Positions 3,472 through 33,528 of a stretch of DNA of 39,717 nucleotides are shown one piece after another. Under the pieces are notes generated by a model. That model was given only the letters and a program-made list of their open reading frames with translations, was not told the origin of the DNA and searched no databases. This stretch comes from Candidatus Hermodarchaeota archaeon (GTDB taxonomy: Archaea > Asgardarchaeota > Lokiarchaeia > Sigyniarchaeales > SOKP01). The position numbers and the translations under genes are program-made. Each line of letters starts with the position of its first letter. Position 1 is the first letter of the stretch. The stretch spans positions 1 through 39,717 of the forward strand of contig JBHLLP010000024.1 in assembly GCA_048885525.1 (NCBI GenBank). Direction: 5' to 3'.

Positions 3472-5469
3472 TTATTCTTCAATAGTCTCAGAAATTTTTT
3501 CAATACTACTTAATTCACTACTGCTAATACCTTTAATTTCTTGAGAAAATTGTATATCTCGATAATATTTTAAGTCTATCGCTCTTGCTGGACAGGAAGA
3601 TACACATACACCGCATCCTTTGCATTTTAATTCATCAACTTGCGCGATTTCTTTCTCATTTACATTTATAGCTTCATAGAAACAAACTTTCTCACACCTA
3701 TGACATCCCATACATAGATCTTCATTAACTTCAGCAATAATTAATTCTTGTTTTATTGTGTCATGAGATAAAATAGTAGATGCTTTACTTGCGGCAGCTA
3801 AAGCAGAAGACACTGAATATGGAATATTTTTTGGCCCTGCAGCACATCCAGCAATGTAAATTCCTATATCTTTTGTTTCTTGTGGACTTAAACATCCATG
3901 AATTTCTGAAAGGAAACCTCCTGGACCCTTACTTAATCCCATTACCTCTACGATTTCTTCAGTTCCTTTTGAAGGAATCATTCCCGTTGATAATACGACT
4001 AAATCAGCATCAATCTTTACAATCTCACCAGTTAGAGATGAATACGCTCTAACTTTTATCTTGTTAGTTTTATGATCCTCTAATATTTCACCTACTTTTC
4101 CCCTAATCATTCTGATACCAGTTTCTCTTATTTTTCTATAATAATCTTCATTTCCCTTATCTGTTGTTCGAATATCAATATAAAACATAATAACATCCAT
4201 GTCTGGATACTCTTGTTTGAGTAATTGAGCGTTTTTAAGTGCAACACTACAACAAACAAAGGAACAATATGGATTAGCATTAACATCTCTAGAACCAACA
4301 CATTGAATCATTACTATGGTTTTTGGTATTTCTCCATTGGAAACTCGATATACATGCCCTCCAGTTGGTCCAATTGGACTTAGCATTCGCTCTAGTTCTA
4401 TTTGTGTAATCACATCAGGATAATACCCATAGTTATATTCATTAGTCTCCCATATTGGATATTCATCCCATCCTGTCGCTATAATTACTGCTCCAACTTT
4501 AATATCAATGTATTTCGTTTCTTGATCAAAATTTATAGCTTCAGCAGGGCAGGTTCGTTCACAATTTTTGCAATCAATGCACACACTTCTATCCATAACA
4601 GCTAATTTTGGGACTGCTTGGGGAAAAGGAATATATATTGCTCCTCTTTCACCAATACCTCTATCAAACTCACTAGGGACCTTAATAGGACATTTCGTGG
4701 TGCATAATCCACATCCTGTACATTTTTTTTCATCAATATACCGAGGATTCTTTTTAATCTTCACCTTATAATCTCCAGGAATACCACTAAACTCTACAAC
4801 CTCACTATAGGTAAATAAATTGATGTTTGGATGTTTGGATGCGTTTACCATTATTGGAGCTAGAACTCATATACCACAATCATCAGTTGGATATATTCTG
4901 TCTAATTGTGCCATCTTACCTCCAATAGTTGCTTCTTTTTCAACTAAATAGACAGGAATTCCTTGGTTGGCTAAATCTAAAGCAGCATTCATTCCAGCAA
5001 TTCCTGCTCCAACAACTAAAACCGCTTTTGTTACAGGAATTTCTTTTCGCGGAATATTTTCTAATTCTCGTGCACGATTGATTCCTGCTTTAACGAGTCT
5101 TATTGCTTTTTCTGTAGCTTTTTTCTTGTCATCTCTATGGACAAAAGAGCAATGTTCTCTTAAATTGACCATTTGAAAATAATAAGGACTTAAACCCGCT
5201 TCAATTAAAACAGCTCTGTAGGTAGGTTCATGTATCTTAGGTGTACATGCCGCAACAACTATTCTATTCAGATCCTGTTCTAAGATATCGTTTCTTATGG
5301 TATTTTGTCCAGGGTCACTACATGTAAAGGAGTTTACTCTAGCAATCACTACATTTGGGAGATTTTCAATAGCATCTTTAACCGCATCACAATCAATGGA
5401 AGCTTTAATATTCACTCCTCACTCACATACATAGACTCCTATTCTAACATTGGTCTGATTTTCAGACAA
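3472..5469 (-). CDS. hdrA: Heterodisulfide reductase subunit A-like flavoprotein, 665 aa, selenoprotein with two UGA-Sec (U17, U201)
   Basis: Track ORFs 4867..5415 and 3472..4851 are in one frame joined by TGA (DDCGI*VLAPIMV). Upstream of 5415 the frame reads TTG-SENQTNVRIGVYVCE*GVNI (canonical RIGVxVCHCGxNI), with an AGGTGA SD 5 nt before TTG at 5469. Also GAGIAG FAD motif, IQCVGSRD, YCSFVCC and ferredoxin motifs. Confidence 0.93.
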
Positions 5470-11495: not shown

Positions 11496-11729
11496 ATGGC
11501 TAAAAAGAAAGCACCTGCTAAGAAATCTGAAGGATATATTGCTAAAGCTCCAATAAGGCGCTTAATGAAAAAAGAGGGAGCAGATCTCGTAGCAGCAGAA
11601 GCACTAGATAAATTAATTGATTTCCTTGAAAAGAGTGCAGCTACAGCAACTAAAGAAGCTATTAAGGTTTGTAAAGCTGACAAAAGAAAACGAGTAACAG
11701 CTGCAGATATTCGAAATGCTACAAGGTAA
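11496..11729 (+). CDS. Archaeal histone with Lys-rich N-terminal tail
   Basis: IAKAPIRRLMKKEGA...VAAEA...ADKRKRVTAADI histone fold preceded by MAKKKAPAKKSEG. Confidence 0.93.
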   Translation: MAKKKAPAKKSEGYIAKAPIRRLMKKEGADLVAAEALDKLIDFLEKSAATATKEAIKVCKADKRKRVTAADIRNATR

Positions 11730-11870: not shown

Positions 11871-12392
11871 TCAAAAAAAATTCTTATAAAAATCCTCATT
11901 TAGAAATTTGTGAATTGAGCTATCTAATTTGCGTTTAACAGAATCTAGACTTTCTGGCAGAACACGAGTTTCTCCTACTATATCAATAAATCCAAGTTCA
12001 GAGCCATATCTGGGAACTATATGGAAATGTAAATGTTCTATACTACCCCCAGCATCTCGACTCTGATTGACACCAATATTATACCCTTTAGGATTATATA
12101 ACTCGTCTAGTAATAATTGGATACCTTGAATTGTTCTGTTGATATGAAGGATTTCTTCTTTAGTAAGTTCAAGGAATTTAGTTAGATGTCTATGGGTAGC
12201 TATCATCAGATGAGCGGGGTTGTAAGGATATAAATTTAATACTATAAAACATAAATTATCTTCATAAACTTTTAATAATCTTACTCTCTCATCATTATCA
12301 CGGACAGCACACAGTATACAATCTACATCAGGCCTATCTTTTCCCTGAACGTAATCTAATTTTCCTAATGCTTGTAGCCATTTTTTAAAAAT
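11871..12392 (-). CDS. HIT-family hydrolase (probable ATT start, 173 aa)
   Basis: HLHFHIVPR triad. The frame extends upstream of track ATG 12206 through WLQALGKLDYVQG...DCILCA...LNLYPYNPAHLM up to an in-frame TGA, with no ATG/GTG/TTG. ATT at 12392 lies 6 nt after GGTGA. Confidence 0.88.
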   Translation of the reverse strand: MFKKWLQALGKLDYVQGKDRPDVDCILCAVRDNDERVRLLKVYEDNLCFIVLNLYPYNPAHLMIATHRHLTKFLELTKEEILHINRTIQGIQLLLDELYNPKGYNIGVNQSRDAGGSIEHLHFHIVPRYGSELGFIDIVGETRVLPESLDSVKRKLDSSIHKFLNEDFYKNFF

Positions 12393-12422
12393 TAATTTTC
12401 ACCAGTAATATTTAAATAATAA

Positions 12423-12971
12423 TTATGAATATAAAGAAAAATCAGAATCAGATGTGAATTCTTTAGATTTTAGTAAATCCTCTGGCTTAATTTTACCTGC
12501 ACAATATTCTTCTAATATGATATTACTATACGCGGCAGAATTGAATACTTTTCGAACAATTTTATAAAAAGAATGTTTAGAAATATATCTATTTTTCTTA
12601 AGAAAAACTTGATCTGTTATTTCATATCTATGATTCTTTATATCTATTCGATAAAAAACGTCCTTTAAAAGAAAAGACTTCCTTAAATCCATAAAAAAAT
12701 TCATTTTTTTAGAACTTTCTAATGAATTTAAAGCATTTACATGGGGTTCTGAAATTAGGACTCCCAAGCTTACTATAATTAAACCCTTATTTTTAGGTTT
12801 AATGACTACCATATTTCTGCCAATTTGGCGTCCTAAAGGATCCTTACCAGGAGGAAATATGAATTGAAACCCAAAATCAAGTTTAGGATCAGAAATCTTT
12901 CTTCGTAATAATCCCTCGTCTAGTAGATATTCTTGGATAAGTTGTTCGATATTAGATTCATTACTCGACAT
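12423..12971 (-). CDS. DUF2299-like protein
   Basis: IQEYLLDEGL...FGFQFIFP...VIKPK...ISEPH pattern recalled for archaeal DUF2299. Confidence 0.6.
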   Translation of the reverse strand: MSSNESNIEQLIQEYLLDEGLLRRKISDPKLDFGFQFIFPPGKDPLGRQIGRNMVVIKPKNKGLIIVSLGVLISEPHVNALNSLESSKKMNFFMDLRKSFLLKDVFYRIDIKNHRYEITDQVFLKKNRYISKHSFYKIVRKVFNSAAYSNIILEEYCAGKIKPEDLLKSKEFTSDSDFSLYS

Positions 12972-27749: not shown

Positions 27750-28598
27750 TTAGAATTCATAGCCACACTTTTTACAAACATGCTTTTTAGCATACATAGG
27801 GATGTGTCCAACATATGAGAGCACTTTGGTCTTATCCTCCGTGACCTTGATATTTGACCCTACAGCGCCGCACATTGGGCATGTAATTCGCTCATCACTT
27901 GCAAAACCTCCCGTACCTATTTCTGGAGGTTTTAGTTCATCGAGTTCAGATTCAACTTCAGAAAGGTGTGCTGTTGTAGATTCTAGTACTTTTTCTTTTT
28001 CAGCTATTTGGTCTGTTAATTCTTGTACTTGAGTATCTCTTTGTAGAAGATTATTATTCAATTCACTTAATTGAGAGTTTAACTGAGTAATTTCACCTTG
28101 AAGGGATGAGACTTTTGAAGTTAATTCTTCAACTTTAGAAGATAAATTGCTTATCTCTTCTTCTTTTGCTGATATTGTACTATGAGCATCATTCAATTCT
28201 GATTCTAAGGTTGAAGAATTTTCTTTAAAAGGTTCTAAATTCGTTATGTTTTCTTCTAATTCAGAGATTTTTGCATCTTTTAAATCTAGGCTATTTTCAA
28301 GATCATTGGTTTTAGTCTTAAACTCTGCTAATTCTGTTTTAAGGTCATTATTTTCAGTATTTAAATTTTTAATTACTTCTTGATCATCTGCTTTTGTCTT
28401 TTCAAGTTCACTTTCAGTTTGATCAAGTTTAGTTTGAGTTTCATCAAGTTTGCTCATTGAATCAGCAAGTTCATTTTTAGTATCACTTAATTGTTTTTCT
28501 AAGTCATTAACTTTAGCTCTAAGATCAAGCAAGAATTTCCCTTCAACCGCCTGTTTCTTATCGGGTTTTTCTTCTGCTTTTGCCCAGTCGATACTAAT
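27750..28598 (-). CDS. Long coiled-coil protein with C-terminal Zn ribbon (probable ATT start, 282 aa)
   Basis: Heptad-rich body, CPMCG...CKKCGYEF. Frame extends 22 codons above the track TTG to ATT at 28598, 6 nt after AAGGTGA. Confidence 0.8.
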   Translation of the reverse strand: MSIDWAKAEEKPDKKQAVEGKFLLDLRAKVNDLEKQLSDTKNELADSMSKLDETQTKLDQTESELEKTKADDQEVIKNLNTENNDLKTELAEFKTKTNDLENSLDLKDAKISELEENITNLEPFKENSSTLESELNDAHSTISAKEEEISNLSSKVEELTSKVSSLQGEITQLNSQLSELNNNLLQRDTQVQELTDQIAEKEKVLESTTAHLSEVESELDELKPPEIGTGGFASDERITCPMCGAVGSNIKVTEDKTKVLSYVGHIPMYAKKHVCKKCGYEF

Positions 28599-28803
28599 TA
28601 TTATTCACCTTATTCAAATATTATTATAATTTTGAATTGATTTTATGAATTTAATTTTTTAATAATATATAAATCATAGTGTATTAAGTTATTAATTATT
28701 TTTACTTTTAGAATTCAAAGTACCAAATTGAATATTATGATTTAATTATTTTCAAAATTATAATATAATATAAAGAAATCATAATTAAAATTTGATTAAT
28801 TTA

Positions 28804-32445: not shown

Positions 32446-32592
32446 AAATATAATGATTTTAAACGTTAATCTTAAATATTAATGTCATCATTATTTTTTA
32501 CGAAAAACGATTATTTATTAATAGTTCTTAATATTGAATAATTTAGAAGACGGTTCATTAAGCCTATTTAAAATATAGATTTGGTGATTTTT

Positions 32593-33528
32593 ATTAGTAA
32601 GAAAATTGGTGTAATGGGTCTTGATAATGCAGGTAAAACCAGTATCATAACAGCAATAACTAAGCGCTTCGGTTTTGAGGAACAGATCAGTAGATTAACA
32701 CAAACGCGGGGAATTGCCCGTGATTCATTCAAATTTCTTGGAATTGAGTTTACTCGATTAGATTTTGGAGGACAAAAAATTTATAGAGAAAATTATCTAG
32801 CACATCCTGAAAAATATCTAATGGGAACAGATTTATTGTTCTATGTTATAGATGCTCAGGACTTTAATCGATATATTGAATCAATAGACTATTTGGAGGA
32901 AATTCTACTTTTTTTCAAAGAAGAACAAGAATATGTGCCAATATGTATTCTTTTCCATAAATTTGATCCTCAACTTGTCAATGATAAGGATATCAATAAA
33001 AGAATTCTTACTTTAAAGCAAGCTTTAACACGATACTCTAATGCTTTTGATATATTTTTTTTTGAGACAACAATTTATGATATAAAATCGATAATGGATG
33101 CTTTTTCAAGCGGTTTATCGATGTTATTTGAAAAGATGGAGATGGTATCGCAATTATTTTCTGAAATAAGCAAGAATTACAATTCAATATTAATTGCTTT
33201 ATTTGACGCAAAAGGTATAACTTTGGGGGAATATTATAGACCACATCTCCATTTAAATGAGAAATTAAAAATATATGAAAAATATATTGAATTGCAAAAA
33301 CGTATAGTTTCAGAGAATAGCACTTTACTCGAATTTTCAGATAGATTTGAAAATGGAGAAAGATTTTCTGGTTTAATTGAAGTTCTCCAATTTGGAAACC
33401 TAGATTTTTATTTGTTATTTATTGTTGAAGAGGATGAAACTGATTTAGAAAAGACCATAAATCTTTTAGATAAAATTGAAGCTGCAAAACCTCAAATGGA
33501 AAATTTAATTTTACAGATTATCCAATAA
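32593..33528 (+). CDS. Rag/Gtr-like small GTPase with C-terminal roadblock/longin-like domain
   Basis: GLDNAGKTS, DFGGQ, HKFD, ETTIYD..SIMDAFS. Start uncertain: TTG 32581, GTG 32584, or ATT 32593 (5 nt after GGTGA). Confidence 0.85.
   Translation: MSKKIGVMGLDNAGKTSIITAITKRFGFEEQISRLTQTRGIARDSFKFLGIEFTRLDFGGQKIYRENYLAHPEKYLMGTDLLFYVIDAQDFNRYIESIDYLEEILLFFKEEQEYVPICILFHKFDPQLVNDKDINKRILTLKQALTRYSNAFDIFFFETTIYDIKSIMDAFSSGLSMLFEKMEMVSQLFSEISKNYNSILIALFDAKGITLGEYYRPHLHLNEKLKIYEKYIELQKRIVSENSTLLEFSDRFENGERFSGLIEVLQFGNLDFYLLFIVEEDETDLEKTINLLDKIEAAKPQMENLILQIIQ

Follow-up and report, generated by a model that had tools for sequence, protein, structure and literature searches.

The window, i.e., the whole 39,717-nucleotide stretch of DNA analyzed here, covers the first 39.7 kb of a 54.6-kb contig (C24) of an Asgard archaeal genome. 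On its minus strand, a gene for a HIT-family protein extends over positions 11871..12392 when it is read from an ATT codon at 12390..12392, which yields 173 codons plus stop and is the reading favored by its translation, by Pfam and by its homologues. In 5' to 3' direction, the TAA stop (12425-12423) of a co-directional upstream gene (12423..12971, minus strand, 182 aa) is followed by 19 nt, the Shine-Dalgarno (SD) core GGTGA (12399..12403), the 6-nt spacer aaatta (12393..12398) and the ATT, which lies 30 nt behind the upstream stop and continues with TTT AAA AAA TGG CTA. The TGA contained in the SD core (12401-12399) is an in-frame stop two codons 5' of the ATT and closes the frame upstream, and a TAA follows 8 codons further upstream. 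Between the TGA and the ATG at 12204..12206 (minus strand), the HIT frame holds no ATG, GTG or TTG. This ATG is the first canonical in-frame start, lies 62 codons after the ATT, corresponds to Met63 of the ATT-started protein and opens an ORF of 111 aa. After the in-frame TGA and before codon 63, the ATT is the sole codon of the AUN or NUG type. A further ATG (aaaaATGg, 12379..12381, minus strand), 11 nt downstream of the ATT, is out of frame; its frame ends after 16 codons and it is not a start. A previous sequence-only reading of the window had described the GGTGA-aaatta-ATT layout and the lack of any in-frame ATG, GTG or TTG after the stop, and both coordinates and translation agree with that description. 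Adjoining the HIT gene, a 77-aa ORF on the plus strand (11496-11729) has a lysine-rich N-terminal tail (MAKKKAPAKK...) and, as judged from its sequence alone, resembles a histone-fold protein of archaea.

The ATT-started protein matches the Pfam HIT domain (PF01230) with 66.7 bits (cut-off 21.5) over residues 40-128, and DcpS_C is matched as well. The histidine-triad motif H-x-H-x-H-x-x is intact in the translation (HLHFHIV), in keeping with membership in the HIT superfamily (PF01230). As the domain spans residues 40-128, the first canonical start falls inside it and initiation at Met63 would cut the HIT domain. The homologues, more than 500 proteins of 161-177 aa, span the entire query; most are from Lokiarchaeia/Promethearchaeota, the group in which protein matches place the genome.

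We compared the orthologous HIT locus in 20 other genomes of the same genus, a check that the sequence-only reading had proposed. The aligned start codon is ATT in 18 of these 20 genomes (19 of 21 if the window is counted), and a GGTGA-like SD always precedes this ATT by 6 nt, the spacer being constant in length and variable in sequence. One of the two remaining genomes has gained an ATG one codon upstream, where the ATT now reads GTT, and the other has ATA at the aligned position. The protein is conserved from the ATT onward (I-F-K/E-K/D-W-L-Q-A-L-G-K-L-D-Y...) and the codon directly 5' of it is hypervariable (L, K, Y, M, I, P, R, F), i.e., conservation begins exactly at the ATT. Within the genus, pN/pS amounts to 0.157 (pS 0.66) over the approximately 60 codons before the first ATG, compared to 0.291 downstream, which indicates that the codons between the ATT and the first ATG are under strong purifying selection, tighter than that on the rest of the gene. 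All genomes compared keep the full-length frame open. Furthermore, the TGA of the GGTGA lies in frame in about 12 genomes, and hence no canonical HIT start is possible there. In other families of the order, the orthologues are extended at the N-terminus and start at ATG or at an SD-led TTG, showing that the N-terminal region is truly coding in the wider family. Leaderless initiation does not match the site either, as there is no AUG and the SD is conserved.

To place the HIT gene in its genomic context, we turned to the metagenome-assembled genome (MAG) as a whole (3.58 Mb, 87 contigs, 29% GC, 3.4% contamination). The ORF set comprises 2870 non-overlapping stop-to-stop frames of ≥120 codons, which cover 84% of the genome and are open frames rather than curated genes, so that all counts are approximate. 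Scoring was restricted to the part of each frame that lies between the upstream in-frame stop and the first ATG, GTG or TTG, with out-of-frame and interior controls. This replaced raw triplet counts after every GGTGA, which are confounded by in-frame GGT-GAN codons inside genes. Among in-frame codons located 6-8 nt after GGTG, ATG (34) and ATT (31) are nearly level, followed by TTG (19), ATA (18) and ATC (6), as against 4-5 each for the equally frequent control codons AAT, TTA, TTT and TAT; out of frame, ATT occupies this position in 9 of 2502 cases. With the SD defined as a contiguous match of ≥5 nt to GGAGGTGATCC at an aligned spacing of 5-7, an SD precedes 121 of 2022 ATG (6.0%) and 35 of 581 TTG codons (6.0%), 37 of 1797 ATT (2.1%; OR 2.8, p 5e-7), 24 of 1357 ATA (1.8%; OR 2.4, p 4e-4) and 6 of 432 ATC codons, and 147 of 19773 other codons pooled (0.74%). 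The spacing from GGTGN peaks at 6 nt for ATG (17), TTG (10), ATT (17) and ATA (13) alike, and the profile is flat, with no peak at 6 nt, for control codons and for out-of-frame ATT in the same genome.

The excess above background corresponds to about 24 ATT, 14 ATA and 3 ATC codons. Thus, about 40 of the 2870 long ORFs (at least 1.4%), or about a fifth of the SD-led starts, appear to begin at ATT, ATA or ATC, a figure that is a lower bound since it omits short ORFs, weaker SDs and genes with an in-frame TTG or GTG inside the SD. An SD-led ATT is followed by the next canonical start at a median distance of 23 codons, other codons at one of 6; the long canonical-free stretch fits coding sequence, whereas the shorter distance fits a non-coding leader. 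SD-led genes are themselves a small minority in this genome, with an SD match of ≥5 nt at about 6% of first ATGs, and SDs have been described as rare in Lokiarchaea (PMC12993045, PMC7531240). The in-frame enrichment of ATT and ATA and the same 6-nt spacing peak as for ATG are what routine SD-guided AUU initiation in this lineage, as envisaged in the sequence-only reading, would be expected to leave behind.

Within the window, the bare motif GGTGA-N5-7-ATT is not more frequent than expected by chance (6 found, 5.1 expected). Three of the six occurrences coincide exactly with the 5' edges of long conserved ORFs, and it is thus the position of the motif at ORF edges and not its abundance that makes it significant. 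These are the three gene starts of the type GGTGA-N5/6-ATT noted previously in 40 kb, at 12392 (-), 28598 (-) and 32593 (+), and comparative data speak for each of them. The sites that had been named for comparison are likewise present, i.e., rps11 with GGTGA-N6-ATG at 284 (-) and hdrA with GGTGA-N5-TTG at 5469 (-). The second case (27750..28609, minus strand) consists of GGTGA (28609-28605), N6 and ATT (28598-28596) in front of a 282-codon ORF beginning ISIDWAKAE. Its 21 same-genus orthologues with the motif are all SD-led and start with ATT (11), TTG (8) or ATG (2), and two paralogues elsewhere in the genome also have SD-led ATT starts. The third case (32583..33528, plus strand) combines GGTGA (32583-32587), N5 and ATT (32593-32595) with a 311-codon small-GTPase-like ORF that carries a GLDNAGKT P-loop. 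The aligned start in the genus is ATT, ATA, ATC, once ACG (locus L168), ATG or GTG, and in several species no alternative in-frame start exists before the P-loop. As TTG and GTG lie in frame inside the SD of the window gene, this case is resolved by comparison alone. In the hdrA gene of the window (4900-5469, minus strand), codon 17 is an in-frame TGA (5421-5419). The motif around it, VYVCE-U-GVNI, suggests a selenocysteine-containing HdrA, and a tRNA-Sec(TCA) is found in the genome by ARAGORN.

In comparative work, a start codon is classically recognized by its turnover at one aligned site, and the ribosomal protein uL16 (L10e) provides a further example. In this genome (C37:22697-23326, plus strand) it has ATA behind AGGTGA-N6. 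Among 24 genus members, the start before A-H-K-R-P-W is ATG in 12, ATC in 6, TTG in 3, GTG in 2 and ATA in 1, namely this genome, and most of these starts have (A)GGTGA-N6 or an AGTGA-like SD in front of them.

Domain content leads in the same direction. Pfam was run on 20 candidates for SD-led non-canonical starts, and domains begin 4-23 residues after the ATT, ATA or CTG codon and upstream of any canonical start. Among the ATT-started proteins, the rubredoxin-like domain of a rubrerythrin begins at residue 6 (next canonical start at codon 95) and ThiF at residue 10 (codon 62). Behind ATA, the domain begins at residue 12 in V-ATPase subunit D (next canonical start at codon 62), at residue 21 in uL16/L10e (codon 39), at residue 8 in a DsrE protein (codon 32) and at residue 6 in AFOR (codon 30). 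An HTH_3 regulator (C29:4588, plus strand) and a zf-AN1 protein (C4:30293, minus strand) have CTG behind GGTGA-N6/7, with domains from residues 11 and 4 and next canonical starts at codons 89 and 78, respectively. Together with the ACG in the GTPase orthologue, these CTG genes suggest that near-cognates other than AUH (AUU, AUA or AUC) may occasionally be used. Elsewhere in the genome, a frame of 164 codons (C63:13393-13887, plus strand) is open without any ATG, GTG or TTG and without a clear SD-led AUH codon (GGTGAT-N6-TTC); it may be non-coding or may have another kind of start.

The MAG itself contains no 16S rRNA, and its 3' end was taken from one genome of the same genus and two of the same order. 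In these relatives, the 16S 3' end is ...GGAUCACCUCC-3' (reads GGATCACCTCC) and is complementary to GGTGA. The spacing of 6 at the HIT gene equals the optimum for ATG and TTG in the same genome. The tRNA inventory obtained with ARAGORN is incomplete (13-34 tRNAs), probably because many tRNAs carry introns. One tRNA-Met was readable, with the anticodon CAU, an A1:U72 pair and three G-C pairs in the anticodon stem, and these are ordinary features of archaeal initiator tRNAs. A second initiator tRNA with a different anticodon is possible. A plausible course of initiation can be drawn from these elements. GGUGA, six bases upstream of the start, would pair with UCACC near the 3' end of the 16S rRNA and bring the HIT AUU into the P site, to be read there by the ordinary initiator tRNA (CAU) despite the third-position mismatch, the SD duplex providing the positioning. 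The HIT protein would then begin with Met-Phe-Lys-Lys-Trp. AUU, AUA and AUC, and rarely CUG or ACG, would accordingly serve a minority class of SD-led genes in the genus as regular starts and would swap freely with AUG, UUG and GUG over evolutionary time. We infer that Met-tRNAi is used at these codons, that initiation is weaker than at AUG and that aIF1 sets the permissiveness.

Several other explanations of the HIT locus were weighed. The sequence stems from one MAG, which is split into 87 contigs and has 3.4% contamination, and an A6 homopolymer adjoins the start site, so an error of sequencing or assembly that hides a true ATG, or a decaying gene with a dead N-terminus, might be suspected. 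The same ATT is, however, found in 18 further members of the genus whose genomes were assembled independently, the frame is fully open everywhere and pN/pS is 0.16 over the disputed codons, leaving a negligible chance for either; the concern about a sequencing error that the sequence-only reading had voiced is thereby settled by the conservation of the ATT across independent assemblies. A start at the ATG at 12206, with the 62 upstream codons as untranslated leader, is what an ORF finder limited to ATG, GTG and TTG returns (111 aa). It would discard HIT profile positions 8-30 along with the conserved CxxC and the NLYPYNPAHL block. Moreover, at the protein level, purifying selection acts more strongly on the supposed leader than on the remaining gene, and homologues in other families carry the region behind an ATG; we regard this start as very improbable. 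Taken together, the absence of a canonical start, the conservation of the ATT in independent assemblies and the purifying selection exclude, in our view, a start at Met63 as well as a sequencing error or a pseudogene.

The N-terminus might also be translated by another route, i.e., by termination-reinitiation, from a neighboring non-AUN codon (TTA, AAA) or through a frameshift from the ATG at 12381. The co-directional gene that stops 30 nt before the ATT and the out-of-frame ATG 11 nt downstream of it lend this some appeal, and yet each version meets counter-evidence, so that we consider it unlikely. Genes with SD-led AUH starts are no nearer to upstream genes than genes without SD (22% and 17%, respectively, lie within 40 nt of an upstream gene, compared to 39% of genes with SD-led ATG or TTG); AUH starts are thus not preferentially located near an upstream gene and reinitiation is not required. 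The spacer codons are unconserved whereas the ATT is conserved, and at spacing 6 the excess is specific to ATT, ATA and ATC. As to programmed ribosomal frameshifting, the sole nearby ATG is out of frame and is missing in most relatives, which read AAG TGG or GAT TGG at this position. Recoding, with the TGA being sense or read through and the ORF extending upstream to a normal start or into the upstream gene, could be entertained because hdrA appears to have TGA as a selenocysteine codon and a tRNA-Sec is present in the genome. The TAA 8 codons above the TGA, with no ATG, GTG or TTG between the two, speaks against it, as do the relative frames of the upstream gene and of HIT, which vary between species and so preclude a read-through fusion of the two, and the intervening sequence, which is not conserved. 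Recoding therefore has next to no chance of being correct. We conclude, with a probability of roughly 0.87 and from comparative sequence data, that the HIT gene is intact and is translated from the AUU at 12392-12390, and that AUU, AUA and AUC are regular SD-led minority starts in the genus.

The start-codon proofreading factor aIF1 appears to be among the genes concerned. The main copy of aIF1/SUI1 (locus L122; C32:32281-32595, minus strand) begins with ATT-AAA-GAT-GAT directly after an in-frame TGA TAA, and its reading frame holds no ATG, GTG or TTG until near the C-terminus. The ATT is invariant in 27 of 27 same-genus genomes and the leader AAGGTTGTGATAA-N6-ATT is nearly invariant, with the ATT sitting 9 nt behind GTGA. 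A second copy, a paralogue (C2:79571-79882, plus strand), has ATA behind GGAGGTGA-N8. Within another family of the order, the aIF1 start is ATA in one genus and TTG in two. It is tempting to speculate that Lokiarchaeia possess a relaxed start-codon regime, in which the stringency is set by aIF1 through its own invariant and sub-optimally spaced AUU, a negative feedback like that of infC and eIF1, and in which AUU, AUA and AUC are ordinary and evolutionarily interchangeable starts for SD-led genes including essential ones. We hold this wider model to be somewhat less probable than its negation, and the feedback by aIF1 is put forward by analogy, as a hypothesis and not as a result. If true, it would be the third independent instance of a fidelity factor that gives itself a bad start site, and such feedback would occur in the closest archaeal relatives of eukaryotes.

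AUU, AUA, AUC and CUG are listed as possible starts in NCBI translation table 11. To our knowledge, no system tested so far initiates well at AUU, and archaeal reporter work is said to accept AUG, GUG and UUG only, which speaks against AUU starts. The eukaryotic eIF1 gene has an AUG in poor context, by which start-codon stringency is autoregulated. The orthologous aIF1 might be compared to it in carrying a weak initiation site, the difference being that eukaryotes use the Kozak context of an AUG and the archaeon a non-AUG codon behind an SD. In bacteria, SD-led AUU starts are known for E. coli infC (IF3) and pcnB (PMC4705826), and AUU and AUA starts behind extended SDs are described for Staphylococcus aureus (PMC13009471). 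The archaeal cases resemble these in that a near-cognate AUU or AUA lies at a fixed distance behind a good SD and is conserved between species, and infC in particular in that the gene of a start-codon-proofreading factor uses AUU (infC in bacteria, aIF1 here). In contrast to the bacterial cases, they occur in an archaeon with the eukaryote-type factors aIF1, aIF1A and aIF2. Furthermore, unlike infC and pcnB, they would concern about 40 or more ordinary genes (uL16, V-ATPase D, HIT) and not a handful of regulatory ones, and between species the codons are freely exchanged for ATG, TTG and GTG. With regard to infC autoregulation, the precondition alone is seen here, namely the ATT of aIF1, and no link between the HIT gene and initiation is known.

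Non-canonical initiation codons were detected in Deinococcus deserti by N-terminal proteomics (PMC2830850). Like the present genus, this is reported to be a lineage in which real proteins have starts beyond ATG, GTG and TTG that break automatic annotation; it is a bacterium with proteomic evidence, whereas the evidence here is comparative and statistical. A "rare ATT start codon" has been proposed for the Asgard (Kariarchaeaceae) tubulin gene atubA (PMC13394414). This, too, is an ATT start in an Asgard archaeon, but the proposal is a methods remark on a single gene from a different Asgard class, made without genome-wide or comparative analysis. Ribosome profiling in Haloferax revealed near-cognate candidate sites, which were set aside (PMC7261190). 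Throughout the literature we searched, archaeal starts are given as AUG, GUG and UUG, and we found no systematic account of AUH starts in Asgard or other archaea. What is new is thus the suggestion that SD-led near-cognate initiation, of a kind known from infC and pcnB, may be routine in an Asgard lineage.

Gene finders that allow only ATG, GTG and TTG truncate or miss such proteins, among them HIT, uL16, V-ATPase D, ThiF, rubrerythrin and aIF1. Public calls for HIT orthologues are 150-167 aa long instead of approximately 173, in line with the N-terminal misannotation foreseen in the sequence-only reading, and the database proteins at the compared loci start at a downstream TTG or GTG (161, 167, 150 aa) or at a GTG inside the SD. 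Those at L003-L006, L012 and L016 begin at internal TTG or GTG codons and lack the N-terminal part of the conserved ATT-started frame. Truncations of this sort distort Asgard protein families, structure predictions and the phylogenies used for eukaryogenesis. Routine AUU, AUA and AUC starts would be unexpected in an archaeon with direct homologues of eIF1, eIF1A and eIF2. Hence, start-codon stringency and its possible feedback control by aIF1 become a concrete and testable question in Asgard archaea.
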